Both the position numbers and the translations under genes were made by a program. Shown here one piece after another: positions 17,526-28,754 of a DNA stretch of 64,000 bases. Under the pieces are notes generated by a model. That model was given only the letters and a program-made list of their open reading frames with translations, ran no database searches and was not told where the DNA came from. The first letter of the stretch is position 1. Each line of letters starts with the position of its first letter. This DNA comes from an uncultured archaeon (lineage in GTDB: Archaea; Iainarchaeota; Iainarchaeia; Iainarchaeales; 1-14-0-10-31-34): contig CAZSOZ010000002.1 in NCBI GenBank assembly GCA_964608675.1, positions 192,001-256,000 on the forward strand. The letters are read 5' to 3'.

Positions 17526-17747
17526 TTGACTGAATTAATTACAAGAAAAACAAATATCAGTGAACTTGTAAAAAAGTATCCTGAAGTAATCCCTGTTTTG
17601 TTTGAAAAAGGAATTCACTGTGTGGGGTGCCAGGCAGCAGCATTTGAAAACCTTGAACAAGGATTAAAAGCACATGGATTAACAGAAGAAGAAATACAAA
17701 AAACAATAGATGAATTAAATGCAAAAGCAGAAGAAAAAGAAAAGTGA
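17526..17747 (+). CDS. DUF1858 / hybrid-cluster-associated redox disulfide domain protein
   Basis: ISELVKKYPE, GIHCVGC, ENLEQGLKAHG; TTG start after GAGGTG. Confidence 0.88.
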   Translation: MTELITRKTNISELVKKYPEVIPVLFEKGIHCVGCQAAAFENLEQGLKAHGLTEEEIQKTIDELNAKAEEKEK

Positions 17748-17751
17748 TAAA

Positions 17752-18699
17752 ATGAAAGTAGAAAAAGTTTTTTTGGTTTCTCCAAGAGGGTTTTGTGCAG
17801 GAGTAAAAAGAGCAGTGGAAGTAGTTGAAGATTGTTTAAAGCTTTTTGGAAGTCCGGTTTATGTAAAGCATGAAATAGTTCACAACAAAAGAGTTGTAGA
17901 AGACTTAGAAAAAAAAGGCGCAGTAACAATAGAGGATTTAAATGATGTTCCTGAAAATTCTGTTGTAGTGTTTTCTGCTCATGGTTCTCCGCCAAAACAT
18001 TATGAATTAGCAAAAAAAAGAAATTTAAAGGTAATTGATGCAACCTGTCCGCTGGTAACCAAAGTTCACTTGGAAGTAAAAAATTTTGCAAAAGAAGGAT
18101 TCAAAATCATTTACATTTGCCATAAAAATCACATTGAAGCAAAAGGAGTTATGGCTGAATTAAAAGAAGGAATTTATCCAGTGGAAACAATTGAAGACAT
18201 ACAAAAACTTGAAATAGGAAAACCCCAAAAACTTGTTTATTTAAGCCAGACAACCTTAAGCGTAAACGAAACAAAAAAAATAATTGAAGCAGTCAAAAAA
18301 AAGTATCCGTATATTACTGACCCCCCAAAAGAAGACATTTGTTATGCAACAACAAACAGACAGAAAGCAGTAAAAGAATTAGTGAAAAAAGTTGATTTAA
18401 TTTTAATTATAGGCTCAAAAACTTCATCTAATTCTCAAAGACTAAAAGAAACCGCTTTGTCTCACGGAAAAAAAGCTTTTCTTGTGGGCAGAATTGAAGA
18501 CCTCAAAGAAGAATGGTTTGAAGGAATAAAAAACGTTGGAATAAGTGCCGGTGCAAGTTCTCCTGAAAAAGTAGTTGAAGAAATAGTTGACTATTTTTTA
18601 AACAAAGGAGCAAAAAAAGAACAGCTTTTAATTTTAGAAGAAAAAATGCAGTTTGTTGAACCATTTGAATTAACTAAAATGAAAAAAGAGAAAAAATAA
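17752..18699 (+). CDS. ispH: 4-hydroxy-3-methylbut-2-enyl diphosphate reductase
   Basis: PRGFCAGVKRA, HEIVHN, FSAHG, DATCPLVTKVH, HIE, QTTLS, DICYATTNRQ, SSNS and AGAS; three cluster Cys present. Confidence 0.95.
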   Translation: MKVEKVFLVSPRGFCAGVKRAVEVVEDCLKLFGSPVYVKHEIVHNKRVVEDLEKKGAVTIEDLNDVPENSVVVFSAHGSPPKHYELAKKRNLKVIDATCPLVTKVHLEVKNFAKEGFKIIYICHKNHIEAKGVMAELKEGIYPVETIEDIQKLEIGKPQKLVYLSQTTLSVNETKKIIEAVKKKYPYITDPPKEDICYATTNRQKAVKELVKKVDLILIIGSKTSSNSQRLKETALSHGKKAFLVGRIEDLKEEWFEGIKNVGISAGASSPEKVVEEIVDYFLNKGAKKEQLLILEEKMQFVEPFELTKMKKEKK

Positions 18700-18711: not shown

Positions 18712-19197
18712 TTACTCTCTTTTTGCCAGCTGAGAGTCAATCATCAGCAAACCGTTTTTTGAGTTTTCAACCATTTTTAGTTTTTCAACGATTTTTCCTG
18801 CGGTGTCTTCTTCTTCAACCTGCTCTGAAACAAACCATTGAATGAAAACTTCTGTAGCAAAATCTTTTTCTGTTTTTGAAAGCTCAAAAATATTGTTTAT
18901 CTGGGATGAAACAAGCTTTTCGTGTTTTAAAGCGTCTTCAAATGCATGCAAAGGAGACTTCCATTCTGTTTCAGGAGCATTAATTTCAGTTAAAATCATT
19001 TTTCCTCCTCTTTCATGCACGAAATCAAATATTTTCATTGCATGAATCCATTCTTCTTCTGATTGTTTTTTCATCCAATGAGCAAAACCCTCTAAATTCA
19101 ACGAATCAAAGTAGGCTGACATCGACAAATACAAATAAGAAGAAAAATACTCGCTATTAAACTGCTTGTTTAAAATTTCCTCTATTTTTTTATTCAT
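18712..19197 (-). CDS. ftnA: Non-heme ferritin
   Basis: E..SSYLYLSMS, EE..HAMK, HE, QWFVSEQVEEE ferroxidase motifs. Confidence 0.95.
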   Translation of the reverse strand: MNKKIEEILNKQFNSEYFSSYLYLSMSAYFDSLNLEGFAHWMKKQSEEEWIHAMKIFDFVHERGGKMILTEINAPETEWKSPLHAFEDALKHEKLVSSQINNIFELSKTEKDFATEVFIQWFVSEQVEEEDTAGKIVEKLKMVENSKNGLLMIDSQLAKRE

Positions 19198-19268
19198 TCA
19201 TTTCACCTCAAATTTTTTTTGTTTTTTTTTATTTATTTTCATTTTATTTTTTAAGTTTTTTTTTGGCT

Positions 19269-19874
19269 TTATTTTTTTGCTTTTAAGTAGTGTTCGTTAA
19301 CTTTGTTCCAGTTAATTACATTAAAGAATGCTTCAATGTATTCAGGTCGCTTGTTTTGGTATTTCAAATAATAAGCGTGCTCCCATACATCCAAAACAAG
19401 CAAAGGAAACATTCCTGCAGTCAAAGGACTTTCCTGGTTTGGAGTCTGAATTATTTCAAGTTCTCCTTTGTTTAATACCAGCCAAGTCCATCCGCTTCCA
19501 AACAAAGTTCCTGCAGAATCAGAAAATTTTTTTTTAAAGTTTTCATAGGAACCAAATTTTTCTTTTATTTTTTCTGCGATTTCTCCTTTAAATTCAATGT
19601 CTTTTTTGAGGATTGTCCAAAAAAAGTTATGGTTGGCTACTCCTCCGCCGTTGTTTTTTACTGCAGTCCTTATTTCATTTGGAAGAGAATTTAAAGCTGA
19701 AACCAGTTCTTCAGGAGATTTTTTTTGCAGTTCTTCATGACCCTCCAATGCCTTATTTAATTTATTTACATATCCTTGATGATGCTTTGAATAATGCACT
19801 TCCATTGTTTTTGCGTCAATGAAAGGCTCTAATGCATCATACGAAAAAGTAAGCTTCATTAATTCATATTTCAT
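19269..19874 (-). CDS. sod: Fe/Mn superoxide dismutase
   Basis: YDALEP, HYSKHH, NGGG..NH, FGSGW, DVWEHAYY; start moved to MKYEL after GAGG. Confidence 0.96.
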   Translation of the reverse strand: MKYELMKLTFSYDALEPFIDAKTMEVHYSKHHQGYVNKLNKALEGHEELQKKSPEELVSALNSLPNEIRTAVKNNGGGVANHNFFWTILKKDIEFKGEIAEKIKEKFGSYENFKKKFSDSAGTLFGSGWTWLVLNKGELEIIQTPNQESPLTAGMFPLLVLDVWEHAYYLKYQNKRPEYIEAFFNVINWNKVNEHYLKAKK

Positions 19875-19934
19875 TTTTAATTCCTCCTTAAAAAATAATT
19901 TTTTTAATTTTTTATTTTTCATTCAATTTTAAAT

Positions 19935-20498
19935 TCAAATTTTTCCAACTAAATTCAAGCCGGGTTCAAGGGTTTTGTCTCCTTCCTTCCAGCCTGCAGG
20001 ACAAACCTGCCCTTTATGTTCTTCTGTAAATTTTGCTGCCTGAATTTTTCTGATTAATTCAGAGGTACTTCTTCCAATGTCATTGTGATGAAATTCAAAT
20101 GCTTTAATTATTCCGTCAGGGTCAATTACAAAAGTTGCTCTGACACTTAATCCTTCTTCTTCAATTAAAGTTCCAAAAGAAGCACATACTTTTCCTGTAG
20201 GATCTGCAACCATCGGAAAACTTATTTTTTTGATTGTTTCAGAACTGTCATGCCATGCTTTATGAACGAATTCAGTGTCCTTGCTTACACTTAAAATTTC
20301 GGTGTTCATTTCCTGAAATTTTTTGTAGTTGTCTGCCAGTTCTCCTAATTCTGTGGGGCACACAAAAGTGAAATCAGCAGGATAAAAAAATAAAACAACC
20401 CATTTTCCTTTGAAATCAGAAAGCTTTAATTCTTTTATTTTGCCGTCATGGAAAGCTTTGGCAATGAAATTAGGTGCTTTTTCATTAATTTTAATCAT
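19935..20498 (-). CDS. ahpC: 2-Cys peroxiredoxin
   Basis: FFYPADFTFVCPTE and VCPAGW; start overlaps the stop of the upstream Fur/PerR gene. Confidence 0.95.
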   Translation of the reverse strand: MIKINEKAPNFIAKAFHDGKIKELKLSDFKGKWVVLFFYPADFTFVCPTELGELADNYKKFQEMNTEILSVSKDTEFVHKAWHDSSETIKKISFPMVADPTGKVCASFGTLIEEEGLSVRATFVIDPDGIIKAFEFHHNDIGRSTSELIRKIQAAKFTEEHKGQVCPAGWKEGDKTLEPGLNLVGKI

Positions 20499-20899
20499 TT
20501 TTTTACCTTCTTTTTGCTGCATTCAGAACATAAACCATAAAAAATTACGTTAACTGAATCAGGCTTGAATTCTCTTGACTTGAATTTGTCAAGCAGGTCT
20601 TTTGGAAAATTTTTGTCAGTGTATTCAATTATTTTTCCGCAGTTCCTGCATACACAGTGTTCATGAAGATTACAGTCAGCATCAAATCTGAATTCCCCGT
20701 TAATTTCAAGCCTGCAGATTTTACCTAGTTCAGCCAGCTTGCTTAAATTCCTGTAAACCGTTGCACGGGTAATTGACGGAACCTCTTCTTTTACTGCATT
20801 ATAAATTGTTTCTGCATTAGGATGGGATTTAACTTTTTTCAGGTAATCAAGAATTTTATGCATTTGAACTGTGTTTCTTATTTCTAAAGACATAAACAA
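20495..20899 (-). CDS. Fur/PerR-family regulator
   Basis: HPNAE, ATVYRNL, RFD, HEHCVCRNCG and YGLCSEC; heads the ahpC-sod-ftn operon. Confidence 0.92.
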   Translation of the reverse strand: MFMSLEIRNTVQMHKILDYLKKVKSHPNAETIYNAVKEEVPSITRATVYRNLSKLAELGKICRLEINGEFRFDADCNLHEHCVCRNCGKIIEYTDKNFPKDLLDKFKSREFKPDSVNVIFYGLCSECSKKKVKK

Positions 20900-20991: not shown

Positions 20992-22050
20992 TTATCTATT
21001 TAAATATGCTTCAAACAAGATGTCTGAACCTGATTTGCAGAAAACCGGATTTTTTAATTGAATTGATTTGCTTATTTTTTTTGTTTCAAGCTGACCAAAA
21101 ACAGGAACTGCATCATTTCCAAAAATTTTTGGAGAAATAAAAAACATTAATTTGTCTGCAAGTTTTTCCTTCAAAAAAGAAGTAAAAATTTGAGAGCCTC
21201 CCTCAACTAAAACAGAAGAAATATTTCTTTTTCCGAGTTCAATTAAAAGTTTTTTTAAGTCAACTGAATTGTTTTTTCCTTTAATTTCTATTACTTTTTC
21301 TTTGAATTTTTTTTCTGGAAAAAGTTTTTTGTCTGTTCCTGCAATCAAAAAGTTTTTATCAGAAAAAACATTTAAGCTGGAAGAAATTTTTTTGGAGCAA
21401 ACAATTATTCTTAAAGGGTTTCTGCTTTTTGGAATCCTTGAAGTAAGTTTTGGATTGTCTTTTTTTGCAGTATTTTCTCCGATTAAAACTGCATCAATTT
21501 TTGAACGAAGAGCATGCACTAGTTTTCTTGATTCAAGGGAAGAAATCCATTTTGAATCAAAGTTTTTTAATGCTATTTTTCCATCCAAAGAAACTGCTGC
21601 TTTAAGGACTACAAAAGGCTTTCTTGTTTTTTGAAATTTAATGTATGCTTCATTTATTTTTTTTGCTTTTTTTTCAAGCAGGCCTGTTTCAACTTTTATT
21701 CCTGCTTTTTTTAATTCGTTTATTCCTTTTCCATTAACTAAAGGATTCGGGTCCTTTAAAGCAACTGCAACTTTTTTTATGCCTGACTGAATTATTGCTT
21801 TTGTGCAGGGAGGAGTTCTTCCGTAATGAGAGCAGGGTTCAAGAGAAACAAACATTTCAGCATTAACTGCTTTTTTTCCTGCTTTATTTAAAGCATTAAT
21901 TTCTGCGTGCTTTCCTGCGTTTTTTTCATAAAATCCTTCGCCAATAATTTTTTTGTTTTTAACTATTATACAGCCTACGAAAGGATTTGGAGAAACATTT
22001 GCTTTAAGGGAAATTTCCAAGGCTCTTTCCATGAATTTTTTTTTGTTCAT
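20992..22050 (-). CDS. ribD: Bifunctional riboflavin deaminase/reductase (bacterial type)
   Basis: SPNPFVG, HAE, LEPCSHYGRTPPC, SLDGKIA, DNPKLT, VEGG. Confidence 0.95.
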   Translation of the reverse strand: MNKKKFMERALEISLKANVSPNPFVGCIIVKNKKIIGEGFYEKNAGKHAEINALNKAGKKAVNAEMFVSLEPCSHYGRTPPCTKAIIQSGIKKVAVALKDPNPLVNGKGINELKKAGIKVETGLLEKKAKKINEAYIKFQKTRKPFVVLKAAVSLDGKIALKNFDSKWISSLESRKLVHALRSKIDAVLIGENTAKKDNPKLTSRIPKSRNPLRIIVCSKKISSSLNVFSDKNFLIAGTDKKLFPEKKFKEKVIEIKGKNNSVDLKKLLIELGKRNISSVLVEGGSQIFTSFLKEKLADKLMFFISPKIFGNDAVPVFGQLETKKISKSIQLKNPVFCKSGSDILFEAYLNR

Positions 22051-23234
22051 AACAAATGGCCTAATTTTTCTTTTTTTGTCTGAAAATAATTTTTTGAAAA
22101 ATTTGTTGGAGAAATCTTTAAGGGAATTCTTTTGCTTACAGTTATTCCGTTTTCTTTCAACTGCTTAATTTTTTCAGGGTTGTTGGTCATTAACTTAATT
22201 TTTTTTGCTCCAAGTTTTTTGAGGATTTCAGCTGCAACAGCAAAACTTCTTTCATCAGGTTTATGGCCTAAAGCAGTGTTTGCCTGAACTGTATCAAAAC
22301 CCTGTTCCTGCAAATGATAAGCCTTAATTTTTTCAATTATTCCTATTCCCCTTCCCTCCTGAAACAAATAAACCAGAATTCCTGCGCTTTCCTCATTTAT
22401 TTTTTGAAGAGAAGATTCAAGCTGGCTTCCGCAATCGCATTTAAGAGAATGAAAAATTTCTCCAGTAATGCACTGAGAATGAAGCCTTACCAAAACTTCC
22501 TTGTTTTTTATTTCTCCTTTAACTAATGCAAGATGAACAGAATTATCAGAAGAAAAACTGAAAGCCATTAATTTCATTAAACCAAATTTGGTTGGAAGAA
22601 CAGCAGAAGACTCAATTTTAACTAATTCATCAAATTCTTTTCTGAATTCAATTAAATCATCAATTGAAACCATTTTAATTTTGTGTTCATCAGAAAACTC
22701 CTTTAATTCATTCAAGTTTTTAACTGAACCATTTTTATTTACAAGCTCTCCTATGACTCCTGCAGGATAATGCTCAGAAAGCCTTGCTAAATCAACTGCA
22801 GCTTCTGTGTGGCCTTCTCTTCCAAGAACTCCTAAAGGATGAGCAAACAAAGGAAAAACGTGGCCAGGGAAACCAAAATCCTTTTTTTCTGCAGAAAAAG
22901 AAATTAATGTCTTAATTGTTTGATTTCTGTCTTTAGCTGAAATCCCTGAACCTACTTTATTGACGGCATCAACAGAAACAGAAAAACTTGTATTAAAATT
23001 ATCTGAACTTTTTTTAACCATTCTTGGAATACCCAATTCATTAAGCCTTTTTTCCTGCATTGGAACACAAATTATTCCAGAAGTATGGTTGACCATGAAA
23101 GCCATTTTTTGTTCAGTTAATTTTTCTGCAGGAACAAACAAGTCTCCTTCGCTTTCCCTGTCTTTATGATCCACTACAATCAAAAAATTTCCTTTCTTTA
23201 ATTCATTCAAAGCTTCAGAAACAGACGAAAACAT
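22047..23234 (-). CDS. ribBA: Bifunctional DHBP synthase / GTP cyclohydrolase II
   Basis: DRESEGD, GISAKDR, PGHVFPL, GHTEAAVDL; VRLHSQCITG, CDCG, QEGRGIG, TNNP. Confidence 0.95.
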   Translation of the reverse strand: MFSSVSEALNELKKGNFLIVVDHKDRESEGDLFVPAEKLTEQKMAFMVNHTSGIICVPMQEKRLNELGIPRMVKKSSDNFNTSFSVSVDAVNKVGSGISAKDRNQTIKTLISFSAEKKDFGFPGHVFPLFAHPLGVLGREGHTEAAVDLARLSEHYPAGVIGELVNKNGSVKNLNELKEFSDEHKIKMVSIDDLIEFRKEFDELVKIESSAVLPTKFGLMKLMAFSFSSDNSVHLALVKGEIKNKEVLVRLHSQCITGEIFHSLKCDCGSQLESSLQKINEESAGILVYLFQEGRGIGIIEKIKAYHLQEQGFDTVQANTALGHKPDERSFAVAAEILKKLGAKKIKLMTNNPEKIKQLKENGITVSKRIPLKISPTNFSKNYFQTKKEKLGHLL

Positions 23235-24116
23235 TTATTTCACCTTTAATGATTTAAAAACTGATTCAACTGAATGCCTTGCATAAGATTCAATTCTTTT
23301 AACTGCCTGTTCCTTTGAAATCCCTGGACCAGAAACTCCAAAAGCAACAGGTTTATTGAATTCAAGACTTAAAGAAAAAACTTTGTCAGCACAAGTAAAA
23401 GCAACAACTTCGTCATGAAAAGTTTCTCCTTTAATTACTGCCCCCAAAACAATCACTGCATTAATATCCTTCTCCTTTAAAAGAAATTTGACTGCCAGAG
23501 GAGCATCCAAAACGCCTGAAACATGAATTGATTCTTTTACCAGCATTCCAAGTCTTTCTGCATGAATTAAAGCAGTTGACTTCATTTTATGAGTGATATC
23601 TGAATTATAATCCGAAACAACCAAACCAAGTTTTATTGTTTTACTGAAAGGAGGCTTAATTTGCCCTTCATCAGAAAAACCCTGGCGTCTTCCTTTTCCA
23701 GCAAATTCAGAAAGAACAGTTTTGCTTTCAAGTAAAGCCAAAGCATTCAAAACATGCTTTTTTGTTCTTTGTTCAGCTATACTGTAAAGTTGTTCTTCAG
23801 TTTTTGCTTCATCCATATGAACAAAAACTTCAAGAATAAACTTGTTTTCCGACAACTGCACGCGCTGAATAGAAAGAGAAGCTTCATGAGAACAAGTTTT
23901 ATCAATTTTTTCAGGACCGGGCATCCCCAAAGCAATAACCAAATCACAATTGTGTTGCTGGAAAAGTTTTTGACAGGCAACAGGAAGGTCTTTAATGCCT
24001 GGAACCGTAAATCTTTCAATGTCTCCCTGAAAACCTGATTCAGTTAATTGCTGTTCAACAAAATCAAACATGTTTACTCTGGAAAAAGTTGTGTCAGCAA
24101 TACCAATTTTAACCAT
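23235..24116 (-). CDS. ribC-ribH: Fusion of archaeal riboflavin synthase (RibC) and lumazine synthase (RibH)
   Basis: N-half KIGIADTTFSRVNM, TVPGIKDLPVAC, ALGMPG, EVFVHMDE (archaeal RibC); C-half GLVVSDYN..IT, GAVIKGETFHD, KPVAFGVSGPG (RibH); one open frame. Confidence 0.9.
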   Translation of the reverse strand: MVKIGIADTTFSRVNMFDFVEQQLTESGFQGDIERFTVPGIKDLPVACQKLFQQHNCDLVIALGMPGPEKIDKTCSHEASLSIQRVQLSENKFILEVFVHMDEAKTEEQLYSIAEQRTKKHVLNALALLESKTVLSEFAGKGRRQGFSDEGQIKPPFSKTIKLGLVVSDYNSDITHKMKSTALIHAERLGMLVKESIHVSGVLDAPLAVKFLLKEKDINAVIVLGAVIKGETFHDEVVAFTCADKVFSLSLEFNKPVAFGVSGPGISKEQAVKRIESYARHSVESVFKSLKVK

Positions 24117-24217
24117 AAAATAAAAAGAAAACAGATTACTTAAAAATGTTTGGCTACTCAAAAAAGAGTAGATGCTTTGGGGAATGCATTCTGCTCAAAA
24201 ACAAAAACTTTTTTTTG

Positions 24218-25423
24218 TTATTCTTTGTCACGCAGTGCTTCAACAGGATCCATTAAAGAAGCTCTTCTGGAAGGAATAAAACCTGAAATCACTCCAACAA
24301 AAAAAGCAAAACCAAGAGAACCTAAAAAAAGAAATAAATTAAATTCAATAAACAAATCAACTCCTGATGAGCTTGCAATGATTCCTCCAATTAAAGCCAA
24401 AGCAAAACCAATTAAATAGCCGATAAATCCTCCAATTAAACCAATGATTCCTGATTCAGTCAAAAAAAGCGAAAGAACAATAGTGTTTGTTGCGCCCACT
24501 GCTTTCATTACTCCTATTTCTTTTGTGCGCTCAACAACAGACATAAGCATTGTATTCATTATTCCAATGCCTCCTACAACCAAAGAAATTGCAGCAATAA
24601 AAACCAAAACAATCTGAATTAAACCTAAAACACTTAAAGCAGTTTCCTGTATTTGGGATGCAGTTAAAATCTGAAAATCTTCTTGTCCGTGAGCTCTCTC
24701 TAATTCTCTTTTAATTCTTTCTTTTACTTCAGAAACATCTTCTTTATTTACTGCTTTAGCAAAAATTCTATAAGGAGTTAATTCTTTTCCTGTTATTTCC
24801 TCTAAAGTTTCATAATTCATTACAACCGCATTATCAAACATTGAACCAAAAGACTGACCTGTTGCCTTAGTGATTCCAACAACTTTTAATGAACCTCCTT
24901 CAAGAACAAGATTCTGCTTTAAATTTATTTTATTTTCAAACTTGTCTTCAGCAAAAGTTTCTCCAATTAAAACAGAATAGTTATCTGAAGAAGCCAAATG
25001 CCTTCCTTTATTTACAGTTAAAACACCCAAATCTTCAAGCAAAGACTGTTTTTTTACGTCAATTCCCAAAATCAAAGCAATTTTTTTTTCGTCTTTGAAT
25101 TCAATGTTTTCAGTTGACAAATACAAAGGAGTAGCTGATTCAACTCCTTTGACTGCTTCAACTCTGTCCGCATCTTTTTCATCAAGTTTAGCAAAAGCAG
25201 AACTCACAAAACTGGAGCCAGGCAAAACAATCAAAGTGTTTGAACCAAGTTTTTCAAATTCTTTTTCAACTGATTTATTAAATCCTTCTCCTATTGAAAT
25301 TAATGCAACAACAGAACCAATTCCAATAATTATTCCAAGCAAAGTCAAAAAACTTCTGAGTTTCTGCTTTTTAAGGTTTTCAAATGCATTAAAAAATAAT
25401 TCTCTGAAATCCATTTTTTTCAC
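24218..25423 (-). CDS. ABC transporter permease, MacB/FtsX family
   Basis: RSFLTLLGIIIGI, ISLVVGGIGIMNTMLMSVVERTKEIG, PVEALR. Confidence 0.93.
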   Translation of the reverse strand: MKKMDFRELFFNAFENLKKQKLRSFLTLLGIIIGIGSVVALISIGEGFNKSVEKEFEKLGSNTLIVLPGSSFVSSAFAKLDEKDADRVEAVKGVESATPLYLSTENIEFKDEKKIALILGIDVKKQSLLEDLGVLTVNKGRHLASSDNYSVLIGETFAEDKFENKINLKQNLVLEGGSLKVVGITKATGQSFGSMFDNAVVMNYETLEEITGKELTPYRIFAKAVNKEDVSEVKERIKRELERAHGQEDFQILTASQIQETALSVLGLIQIVLVFIAAISLVVGGIGIMNTMLMSVVERTKEIGVMKAVGATNTIVLSLFLTESGIIGLIGGFIGYLIGFALALIGGIIASSSGVDLFIEFNLFLFLGSLGFAFFVGVISGFIPSRRASLMDPVEALRDKE

Positions 25424-25449
25424 TTAACCAATTTTCTTTTTTTAATTTT

Positions 25450-26667
25450 TTATTCAAATCTTAATGCCTCAACTGGATCCATTTCTGCTGCTCTTTTTGC
25501 AGGAATCCATCCAGAAACCATGCCAACAACCAAAGAAAAAATTAATGCACCTGCAATTAATTCAATTGAAGGAAAAGCATTAAATGCAAAACCTGCATAA
25601 GAAGCAGTAAAAGACGCAAACAAAGCAATCAAAGAACCCAAAACTGCTCCTACAATTCCTCCAATTAAACCAATTAAAGCTGATTCAAACAAAAAAATCC
25701 CAAGAACTGTAGTGCTTGTAGCACCAATAGCTTTCATTATGCCGATTTCTCTTGTTCTTTCCATTACAGCCATTAACATTGTATTCATTATGCCTATTCC
25801 TCCTACTACAAGAGAAATTCCTGCAATCACAAAAACAATTAATCCTACCAAACCAAGTATTGCGTCTGCTCCCTGAAGCAGATTCTCTGAAGTCATTGTA
25901 TAAAAGTCTTTTGCCCCGTGCTTTTTTTCTAATTCGTCTTCAATTTCTTCCTGTATTTCATTAATTCTTTCAGTGTCTTCAACTGTAACCAGCAATTCAA
26001 CAGGATTTTTTTCATTAAAATAGTCTTCAACCACTCTTTTGTTTACTAACACCATATTAGAAACGCCAAAAGAAGAAGCAAAAGCATTAGGTTTGCTTAT
26101 TGCAATAACACGAAATTTTTTTCCGTTTATTTCAATGTTTTCTCTTACCTGAATTTCTTCATCAAAAGTTTCAGAAGCAAAATCAGAATACAAGCCAACA
26201 GAAAAATTGTCTGTTGAAGTAAATTCTCTTCCTTCAATTATTTGCACGTAACCCATTTGTTCAAGCAAATACATTTTGTCTGCTTCCATTCCAACTAAAA
26301 TCACTTCCACTTCCTGTCCTTTGTATTCAAGTATTGCAGAAGTTTCCCAAAAACCAGTAGCATCTTCAACTCCTCTAACTCGCTTAATTACATCCAAATC
26401 ATCTTCTTTTAAAGTACGGGCAATAGCAGTAGTGATTCCTGCTTCAGAACCAGGTTCAACAAAAATAGTGTTCATTCCAAGAGACTGAAGTTCTCCAGTA
26501 ATGAATCCCTGCAGACCCTGAACAATAGCAATCAAAGAAACAATTGCAGCAATGCCAATAATTATTCCAAGCAAAGTCAAATAACTTCTAAGCTTCTGGT
26601 TTCTGATGTTTGTAAAAGCAACAGAAAAGGTTTCAAAATCAATCATTTGCACCTTTCCTTTTTTCAT
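25450..26667 (-). CDS. ABC transporter permease, MacB/FtsX family (paralog)
   Basis: RSYLTLLGIIIGI, GGIGIMNTMLMAVMERTREIG, DPVEALR. Confidence 0.93.
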   Translation of the reverse strand: MKKGKVQMIDFETFSVAFTNIRNQKLRSYLTLLGIIIGIAAIVSLIAIVQGLQGFITGELQSLGMNTIFVEPGSEAGITTAIARTLKEDDLDVIKRVRGVEDATGFWETSAILEYKGQEVEVILVGMEADKMYLLEQMGYVQIIEGREFTSTDNFSVGLYSDFASETFDEEIQVRENIEINGKKFRVIAISKPNAFASSFGVSNMVLVNKRVVEDYFNEKNPVELLVTVEDTERINEIQEEIEDELEKKHGAKDFYTMTSENLLQGADAILGLVGLIVFVIAGISLVVGGIGIMNTMLMAVMERTREIGIMKAIGATSTTVLGIFLFESALIGLIGGIVGAVLGSLIALFASFTASYAGFAFNAFPSIELIAGALIFSLVVGMVSGWIPAKRAAEMDPVEALRFE

Positions 26668-27863
26668 TTATTTTTTTTAATGAATTTTTTATAAACAAAC
26701 CTTCCTGCAAAAAACAATACAATCAAAACAACAATCCAAAACCATAAATTAAAATCGGAAACAGAAACTTCAGCAACATCATAAACTTTTAAAATTAAAT
26801 TTTTGGTTATTGTTTTATCTGCACCATACTGGTCTTTGTACTGCATTATAATTTGAACAGGATATTCTCCTTTCTGCAAATCAGAATTCAAGTTAATTGT
26901 TTCTTTAAAAGAATCAAAGTCATCCGCATTCATGGTTCCAATAAAATGCTTTGGATTCTCAAATTCTCCTATTTCAGTTGAAAGCAGTACAACAAGAGAT
27001 TTTGCATCTCCTACTCCAACATTAAATAAATCAAAAGTTAATTCAGTTGTCCCCCCAGAATAAGGCTTGACTGAATAATTACTTATAACTGCATCCATTT
27101 CAGCGTTCTCTGCTACCTTAATTCCAATGTATTTTGTTTCAGTGTAATCAGTTAATTCTTCGTCTTTAAATTTAATTGTAATCGGCACCATATAAGTTTT
27201 CTGGTCTGCTTCAGGATTAACCCCCAAAATAATTGCAACAGTTTTTTCCTGTCCTTCCTTTAATTCATTCAAAAAAACAAAAGAACTTCCCAGCTGTTTT
27301 ATTTCTCTTTCAACAACCACTCCGGTGCTGGTTACAGTTCGATCTTCAGTGCTTCCCACTAAAATATTCAAAGCTTTCCCTGAACCAACATTCTTTAAAT
27401 TAAGGTTTACTTGAATGGACTGCCCTGGAGCAATCTCTGTCGGTTGAGCAGAAACAACTTCAATCTGAGGAGAAATCCTTAATACATCAATAGAATAAGG
27501 AACGCTTTTTTTTATGCCGTCTTCTTCAAGTACTTTCATTCTAATACTATAACTTCCATTTAATGCTTCAGAATTAACTCTGACTTTAAATTTAACTAAA
27601 AGGTTTTCGTTTCCTCTGATTGTTCCAAGCTGTTTTTCAGCTGAAACCCCTGGATCCAAAGAAAAAGGGTAATCTAAATCCAAAACAAATGAAACAGGAT
27701 TTGATTCAGCAGAACTTTTATTTTTTACTACAATCCATAATTCAGTGTATTGTCCTGGAACAGCAGGAGAAGGCGAATAAGTAACAGAATTAATATCCAA
27801 ATTTACTGCAGAAACAATTCCTACAAAAAACAAAACCAAAAAAAACAATAAAAATTTCTTCAT
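26664..27863 (-). CDS. COG1361 S-layer-like protein of archaeal ABC operons
   Basis: Signal peptide, PSPAVPG, repeated Ig-like L-x-N-x-G modules, C-terminal TM. Confidence 0.8.
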   Translation of the reverse strand: MKKFLLFFLVLFFVGIVSAVNLDINSVTYSPSPAVPGQYTELWIVVKNKSSAESNPVSFVLDLDYPFSLDPGVSAEKQLGTIRGNENLLVKFKVRVNSEALNGSYSIRMKVLEEDGIKKSVPYSIDVLRISPQIEVVSAQPTEIAPGQSIQVNLNLKNVGSGKALNILVGSTEDRTVTSTGVVVEREIKQLGSSFVFLNELKEGQEKTVAIILGVNPEADQKTYMVPITIKFKDEELTDYTETKYIGIKVAENAEMDAVISNYSVKPYSGGTTELTFDLFNVGVGDAKSLVVLLSTEIGEFENPKHFIGTMNADDFDSFKETINLNSDLQKGEYPVQIIMQYKDQYGADKTITKNLILKVYDVAEVSVSDFNLWFWIVVLIVLFFAGRFVYKKFIKKNK

Positions 27864-27951
27864 TTTTTACACCTCAAAATGACTCGGGGTATTGCATTAA
27901 ATAATTTGAATCCTGCAATAATAATTTAAATCAATAATTTAATAAACGCTT

Positions 27952-28653
27952 TCAATTTTTTTTTAGTTTTTTGTCGTCAACAATTTTTCCGTCTTTTAAA
28001 AAAATTATTCTCTGAGCTTTTTCTGCAATATCCTGTTCATGAGTTACGATTAAAATAGTTTTTCCTTTCTTTGAATGCAAATCAGAAATTAAATCCATTA
28101 TTTGGTCTCCTGATTTTGAATCAAGGTTTCCAGTAGGTTCATCTGCAACAATAATATCAGGATTAACAGCTAATGCACGAGCAATAGCCACTCTCTGCCT
28201 TTGGCCTCCGGAAAGCTCGCTTGGCTTATGGTTAATTCTGTCTCCTAAACCAACATCAGACAAAATTTTTTCTGCAGTTTTTTCTCTTTCGTTTCTTGAA
28301 GTCCCCTGAAACCACAAAGGAAGCATTACGTTTTCTTTTGCAGTCAAACGATTAATTAAATTAAATGTCTGAAAAACAAAACCAATAGTTTGTCCTCTGA
28401 TTTTAGCTAATTCATTGTCATCCATTTTTGAAATCGGCTTATTATTAATAAACACTTCTCCTGAACTAGGACGCAGTAAAACACTTAAAATGTCAAGCAA
28501 AGTTGTTTTGCCTGAACCAGAAGGCCCCATAATAGAAAGAAATTCTCCTTCCTTTAATTCAAAGTTAACTCCATTCAAAGCATTAACTTTAACTTTACCC
28601 ATAAAATAAGTTTTAACTACATTTTCTGCTTTAATAATTGTTTTTCCTGCCAT
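27952..28653 (-). CDS. ABC transporter ATP-binding protein (LolD/MacB-like)
   Basis: [35 protein letters not shown]. Confidence 0.96.
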
Positions 28654-28754
28654 CAGCACACCAAAAAAAAAAGTTTTTCAATAAAAAATGAAGTCAAATC
28701 AATTTAAATAATTTTTGAAATGTAATTTTTTTATTAAAAAAAAAAGAGAAAAAA

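Follow-up and report, generated by a model that had tools for sequence, protein, structure and literature searches.

A fused riboflavin synthase and lumazine synthase gene in an uncultured archaeon and its relatives

Archaeal riboflavin synthase (RibC), a homopentamer with its active sites between adjoining subunits, is a paralog of lumazine synthase (RibH), and the two enzymes catalyze consecutive steps. The pair has become the standard example of a particle in which two enzymes recycle a substrate, of which the bacterial form (a trimer in a 60-mer) alone is understood; as far as our literature search reached, the archaeal pentameric enzyme has no described complex. The window analyzed here (64,000 nucleotides; contig CAZSOZ010000002.1 of assembly GCA_964608675.1, positions 192,001 to 256,000), from an uncultured archaeon of the Iainarchaeota, contains a locus, here called ribCH, in which a RibC and a RibH domain lie in one open reading frame. 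Do the two enzymes form a single protein, how could such a protein have arisen, and how might it be arranged in space? We regard it as highly probable that ribCH is a real, bifunctional fusion derived by stop loss. A natural, recurrent head-to-tail fusion of this kind offers a direct handle on whether two paralogous pentamers act as one particle.

Reading frame, domains, and operon of ribCH

The ribCH frame is uninterrupted on the minus strand, running from an ATG at 24116 to a stop at 23235-23237, and it heads a tight ribCH-ribBA-ribD operon. The ribBA ATG directly abuts the ribCH stop, and ribD and ribBA overlap by 4 nt. The features of the operon are as follows.

23235..24116, minus strand: ribCH, a single ORF of 293 aa (293 codons plus TAA), fused riboflavin synthase and lumazine synthase
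23658..24116, minus strand: RibC domain (residues 1-153), archaeal pentameric-type riboflavin synthase including the invariant C-terminal AGxGxRQG tail
23637..23657, minus strand: junction (residues 154-160, KPPFSKT), the sole residues outside both family models
23238..23636, minus strand: RibH domain (residues 161-293), lumazine synthase of the short archaeal type
22047..23234, minus strand: ribBA, DHBP synthase plus GTP cyclohydrolase II (PF00926, PF00925, TIGR00506, TIGR00505)
20992..22050, minus strand: ribD, bacterial-type bifunctional deaminase/reductase (TIGR00326 eubact_ribD, 354.4 bits; cut-off, 156.35)

An upstream TTG at 24161 is the start given for ribCH in the ORF list and would yield 308 aa; the ATG at 24116 is preferred because residue 3 then aligns with residue 4 of the Methanocaldococcus jannaschii RibC. 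The first-pass annotation of this locus had described one ORF with an archaeal RibC followed by RibH and had proposed a search for two tandem DMRL-synthase-fold domains. This description is borne out by two NCBIfam equivalog models with curated cut-offs, both of which are exceeded (i.e., TIGR01506 ribC_arch on residues 3-153, with 172.8 bits against a cut-off of 100.55 and model positions 1-151 of 151 covered, and TIGR00114 lumazine-synth on residues 161-291, with 133.5 bits against a cut-off of 84.6), and by the Pfam family PF00885, which matches ribCH twice (RibH half, 156 bits; cut-off, 26.7).

The RibC half aligns without gaps to the M. jannaschii RibC (MJ1184; 2B98/2B99) over query residues 3-152 (phmmer E value, 1.1e-42) and has the same fold, including the C-terminal AGxGxRQG. 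The M. jannaschii protein is a stand-alone enzyme of 156 aa, whereas in ribCH the same tail continues into a second enzyme. Residues A139, G140, G142, R144, Q145, and G146 of this tail are invariant in an alignment of 66 fused homologs and are also found in the M. jannaschii RibC. The nearest sequences to the RibH half are stand-alone archaeal RibH proteins (~134-153 aa; P0138 and P0148-P0151), with 47-53% identity over the whole domain; unlike these, the RibH domain of ribCH has no free N-terminus. Compared with the bacterial lumazine synthases 1HQK and 1W19, it is without ~11 N-terminal residues, as are the short archaeal RibH proteins.

The 18-residue linker proposed by the first-pass annotation is mostly the conserved tail of RibC itself, and, judged from the extent of the family models, the real junction is ~7 residues with no added spacer. 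Among 118 fused homologs, the distance from the RQG glycine to the first RibH strand glycine ranges from 13 to 48 residues (median, 16) and amounts to 15-17 residues in 88. In split relatives (e.g., the same-genus genome G014), the RibC tail and the RibH N-terminus sum to approximately the length of the fused junction, and thus no spacer was gained at fusion.

A RibA or RibBA homolog lies just downstream in all 22 other fused loci, and ribD is present in 13 of these 22, a count limited by the short length of several loci; the corresponding figures for 89 split loci are 30 with RibA/RibBA downstream and 7 with ribD. The early riboflavin enzymes encoded at 20992-23234 (minus strand) are of bacterial type, namely, a RibBA with GTP cyclohydrolase II and a bifunctional eubacterial-type RibD. 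Together with the archaeal-type RibC and RibH of the last two steps, they make up a mosaic riboflavin pathway. The same pairing of bacterial-type RibBA/RibD with the fused gene was seen in Micrarchaeota loci.

Split gene pairs, distribution, and recurrence of the fusion

The first-pass annotation had also stated that the two genes are normally separate. They are indeed two genes in most of the other archaea sampled, yet they are neighbors in the same order there and often overlap. In all 112 archaeal loci that we compared (a count that takes in the window and three duplicate records), ribH comes after ribC on one strand; fused frames account for 23 of them, in-frame split pairs for 70, and pairs split in another frame for 19, the 70:19 proportion being a selection effect of a search ranking that favors in-frame pairs. 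Split pairs occur in records titled Thermoplasmata, Methanomassiliicoccales, Methanosarcina, Methanospirillum, Methanoregula, Woesearchaeota, and Iainarchaeum, among others, and their holders include the cultured M. spelaei MC-15 (Methanosarcina). These adjacent pairs share gene order, strand, and domain content with ribCH but, unlike it, have a stop and a separate start, giving two polypeptides.

The split state also occurs within the genus of the source genome. In G014 (locus L095; G014:C2:165400-168300), RibC and RibH are encoded by two distinct genes, with the ATG of ribH falling within the final ribC codons in a different frame; this arrangement could be ancestral, a reversal, or a single-base assembly error. 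In four near relatives, the ribC stop and the ribH start overlap or nearly touch. Given the overlapping or near-touching signals in G014 and these relatives, one indel or the loss of a stop would suffice to turn a translationally coupled pair into the fusion, which is thus a small evolutionary step from a common neighboring gene pair. In the scenario that we favor, the ancestral state would have been ribC followed immediately by ribH, often with translational coupling; the stop would then have been lost (or a small frameshift acquired) such that the natural tail of RibC runs straight into the first strand of RibH, and this event would have recurred in small-genome DPANN archaea. Gene fusion would thereby complete, in streamlined genomes, what translational coupling began.

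Within the phylum of the source genome, 57 of 215 species genomes gave a match, and an open fused frame, checked on the DNA in each case, was found in 6. Those of the same genus comprise complete fusions in the source genome, G012, G013, and G015 and a contig-end fragment across the junction in G011; G045, from another family of the phylum, carries a complete fusion. A protein from the same genus bears the NCBI label Micrarchaeota. In a large protein collection, a search returned 491 matches, and 118 of the best 120 are full-length fusions of 279-353 aa with 41-77% identity, so that at least 118 fused protein clusters (90% identity clustering) are counted among the best 120 of the 491 matches. 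Clustering at 50% leaves at least seven representatives (P0121-P0126 and P0128) that extend over both domains. True fusions number 17 among the best 80 of 593 genome loci, and their records are titled Micrarchaeota, Micrarchaeia, Bilamarchaeaceae, or plain archaeon, with the single exception of "Ca. ainarchaeum sp." The fusion is therefore not rare and is widespread in related uncultured archaea.

Single matches extending over both domains in 13 genomes of the phylum and in 59 of the 80 loci were rejected as fusions, these being in-frame neighbors with an intervening stop; G171 was left out. Two metagenomic proteins combine the domains differently and represent inventions separate from ribCH: P0171 (316 aa) has the reverse order, a type II RibH followed by RibC, and P0235 (327 aa) is a tandem RibH-RibH. 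Several other proteins (P0133, P0137, P0189, P0196, P0198, P0209, P0217, P0224, and others) are stand-alone RibC or RibH with N-terminal extensions of 220-360 residues, which gave no match to a Pfam or NCBIfam family.

Public entries for the fused proteins are mostly named just "riboflavin synthase," although one JGI entry names both activities. Given this label, pathway reconstructions for DPANN archaea may wrongly score lumazine synthase as missing. A full-text literature search, with a coverage that excluded most subscription journals and PDF supplements, yielded no description of a ribC-ribH fusion. The words "fusion" and "fused" occur 0 times in a 2026 Biochemistry review (PMC13151069); in the available part of PMC5397151, the fusions described concern RbkR rather than ribC-ribH; and one searched text supplement of PMC8561730 makes no mention of it, while the PDF supplements of that paper, which lay outside the search, may discuss riboflavin "gaps" in Micrarchaeota. 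Within this limited coverage, the literature agrees with the first-pass annotation, which knew of no characterized example, and the fusion has apparently never been studied, though each half is an ordinary family member.

To examine how often the fusion arose, we built a tree of the RibC domain with a quick IQ-TREE search (138 rows, 49 of them fused). The rows comprise all sufficiently covered loci and 27 of the 118 fused proteins, which were picked before the tree was seen as the nearest relatives of the window or for their unusual junctions. A Micrarchaeota clade (28 rows, 27 fused; support, 99) is separate from the clade containing the window (13 rows, i.e., 12 fused plus the split G014; support, 98). 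The fused state requires seven changes on this tree, at least five of which are forced by strongly supported branches. Constraining all fused forms to a single clade cost 109 log-likelihood units, and the AU test rejected such a clade (p 0.035), a marginal value obtained with quick-search trees. The RibH-domain tree is poorly resolved and requires 10 changes, 2 of them forced by supported branches. Judging from these trees, which are unrooted and in which gain and loss are indistinguishable, the fusion arose at least twice and probably several times. The RibC of the window groups with sequences titled Woesearchaeota or Nanoarchaeota, apart from the bulk of its own phylum (a split clade of 25 rows), a hint that the gene pair may have moved between DPANN lineages.

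Recurrence of this kind is also what one would expect if the fusion were neutral, with stop loss in a coupled pair being fixed by drift during genome streamlining and the two rings remaining independent on a flexible tether, with neither channeling nor a new architecture. The junction consists of just two natural termini with no added spacer, at least one apparent split form occurs within each fused clade (G014 and L083), and the fused forms occur in small DPANN genomes of ~1-1.5 Mb, all of which fit this account. However, the large Micrarchaeota clade retains the fusion in 27 of 28 rows, and the distance between the domains is held within narrow limits (15-17 residues in 88 of 118). We therefore consider neutrality possible but somewhat unlikely; retention and tight spacing suggest that the fusion is at least harmless and that its geometry matters.

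Possible arrangement of the two pentamers

It is well established that riboflavin synthase forms riboflavin from two lumazines and releases one pyrimidine, which lumazine synthase uses again as a substrate. In ribCH, the C-terminal RibH domain would convert 5-amino-6-ribitylamino-uracil and DHBP into 6,7-dimethyl-8-ribityllumazine, and the N-terminal RibC domain would dismutate two of these lumazines to riboflavin, handing one pyrimidine back to RibH. Five chains would form a RibC ring stacked coaxially on a RibH ring (5 x 32.6 kDa, ~163 kDa), which would fix a 1:1 ratio and hold the product and the recycled substrate near each other. This double ring appears to be the most likely architecture because both parents are pentameric and the tether is short; argued from those parents, the case for it stands about evenly poised between acceptance and doubt.

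An AlphaFold2 model of ribCH has a mean pLDDT of 95.2 and a pTM of 0.72, with a pLDDT of ~80 for residues 141-160, including the coil between the helix at 134-138 and the strand at 161-168. In the differing chains of 2b98/2b99, 139 to 152 of the 156 residues are aligned or modeled, which indicates that the tail before the junction is flexible. Given such a tail, the two rings need not form a fixed stack, and a loose tether is also conceivable. A complex prediction with RibC (residues 1-153) and RibH (residues 161-293) as separate chains with alignments gave scores of 0.26 and 0.19, against a mark of 0.32.

In Bacillus subtilis heavy riboflavin synthase and in the lumazine synthase/riboflavin synthase inclusion complex of Aquifex, the same two consecutive enzymes likewise share one particle in which the pyrimidine is recycled (available text of PMC7369331). 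That complex is non-covalent, with a trimeric RibE that is targeted by a C-terminal peptide and enclosed in a 60-mer, whereas ribCH is covalent and 1:1 and has no RibE, its RibC (a lumazine synthase paralog unrelated to RibE) being attached at the outward N-terminus of RibH. The Bacillus complex contains 3 alpha subunits to 60 beta subunits, and the 1:1 ratio of ribCH is so far from 3:60 that a kinetic benefit is not obvious. According to the available text of PMC7369331, the N-termini of lumazine synthase point outward on the outer face; an N-terminally fused RibC would consequently sit on the outer face, outside any cage. The analogy to the Bacillus enzyme drawn in the first-pass annotation thus fails in topology, as judged from that text, and no trimeric RibE was found in the genome.

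A different outcome would be a cage with spikes on its outside, i.e., a RibH icosahedron of 60 subunits with a RibC pentamer on the outer face of each of its 12 pentamers (~1.96 MDa). The active sites of lumazine synthase face the cage interior, so that a RibC on the outside would gain little proximity; M. jannaschii RibH, for its part, reportedly forms capsids. Lumazine synthases are assembled from pentamers into particles of 5, 10, or 60 subunits. Many form 60-mers and tolerate N-terminal fusions, their termini being outward (available text of PMC7369331), and a designed icosahedral cage (5im5) employs the RibC pentamer as its five-fold component. With these points set against the poor gain in proximity, we regard the cage as unlikely, and the stacked double ring remains our preferred architecture. 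The columns corresponding to L121 and I125 of the Aquifex enzyme were tried as a sign of pentamer versus cage and discarded, as they are charged or variable in fused and equally in split archaeal RibH.

By "Rosetta stone" reasoning, the fusion might reveal that archaeal RibC and RibH pentamers dock ring on ring in all archaea with a coupled pair, a generalization that we consider doubtful. If it were true, such docking would give archaea an equivalent of heavy riboflavin synthase, assembled from two paralogous pentamers, with the fused DPANN proteins as its hard-wired form and an easy route to solving the structure of the complex. Should RibH also form a 60-mer, the particle would be turned inside out, its 12 riboflavin synthase rings lying outside the cage. 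For protein engineers, the double ring would represent a natural two-ring C5 module, both parents of which already serve as cage building blocks (5im5; lumazine synthase vaccine scaffolds).

Integrity of the enzyme halves, the junction, and neighboring genes

In the RibC half, family-invariant columns served as a proxy for active-site residues: all 27 N-domain columns that are invariant among 66 fused homologs hold the same residue in the M. jannaschii RibC (comparison by eye). For the RibH half, we considered Phe22, Glu58, Thr86, His88, and Arg127 (Aquifex/Bacillus numbering), which we take to be catalytic or substrate-binding residues of lumazine synthase. In the alignment to the Aquifex aeolicus enzyme (1hqk), which stops at residue 129-131, short of Aquifex K135, residues Y170, D204, T232, H234, F259, and R274 of ribCH fall at F22, E58, T86, H88, F113, and R127, respectively. 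Of the 118 fused homologs, all retain the His, Thr, and Arg, 116 have an aromatic residue at the F22 site, and all have Asp or Glu at the E58 site. Foldseek comparisons of the RibC half with 2b98/2b99 gave target-normalized TM scores of 0.94-0.96 (rmsd, 1.2-1.5 A), and those of the RibH half gave TM scores of 0.78 to 1hqk and 0.82 to 1w19, the pentameric Mycobacterium tuberculosis enzyme. By sequence and fold, then, neither half looks dead, and both appear to be intact enzyme domains.

The source genome (1.21 Mb in 53 contigs) is 94% complete. No further PF00885 domain was found in this 94%-complete assembly beyond the two in ribCH, and PF00677 (bacterial-type RibE) gave no match in it, while the same search was positive in 11 of 14 control genomes. 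As far as this assembly shows, ribCH therefore appears to be the only source of both activities in the genome. As the sole copy of both RibC and RibH, ribCH would carry out both steps if the cell makes riboflavin.

The possibility that one domain is catalytically dead had been raised in the first-pass annotation, and one form of it would be a dead scaffold, e.g., a RibH-like ring retained merely to pentamerize RibC. Both domains are paralogous and share one fold, which lends the idea some sense, but the catalytic equivalents are kept in both halves family-wide, both halves score above their equivalog cut-offs, and no other copy of either enzyme was found while ribBA and ribD are intact; we regard this explanation as very improbable.

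The same annotation had called for verification of reads across the linker, which we carried out at the level of assembled (Logan) contigs from two samples of the same study, these contigs standing in for raw reads. A contig from run X1, possibly the source sample, spans 23000-24400 as one piece with 0 differences, and a contig from the second sample, X2, spans 23525-23707 and crosses the junction (23637-23657) with neither a difference nor a gap; neither contig contains the stop or frameshift in the linker that the annotation had considered. That an assembly or gene-calling artifact merged two genes is hardly credible, for although G014, with its two overlapping genes in different frames, illustrates how a single-base error could fuse or split such a pair, the contig from the independent sample X2 is identical over the junction, and the fusion is also present in the same-genus genomes G012, G013, G015, and G011 and in 118 clusters of many sources. 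The fusion is genuine and no assembly error.

Several neighboring genes of the window deserve mention. Directly downstream of ribD, on the same strand (18712-20899, minus), lie genes for a Fur-family regulator, an AhpC/TSA peroxiredoxin, an Fe/Mn superoxide dismutase, and a ferritin; the position of the operon beside these genes suggests a possible link of flavin synthesis to iron or oxidative stress. A gene at 17719-18699 (plus strand) strongly matches LytB/IspH (309.9 bits). IspH catalyzes the final step of the bacterial-type MEP isoprenoid pathway and is unexpected in an archaeon, and the gene may stem from gene transfer. Upstream of ribCH, the region at 24218-28659 (minus strand) encodes two paralogous MacB/FtsX-type permeases, a weakly CARDB/NEW3-like surface protein, and an ABC ATPase, which together look like a MacB-type export system.
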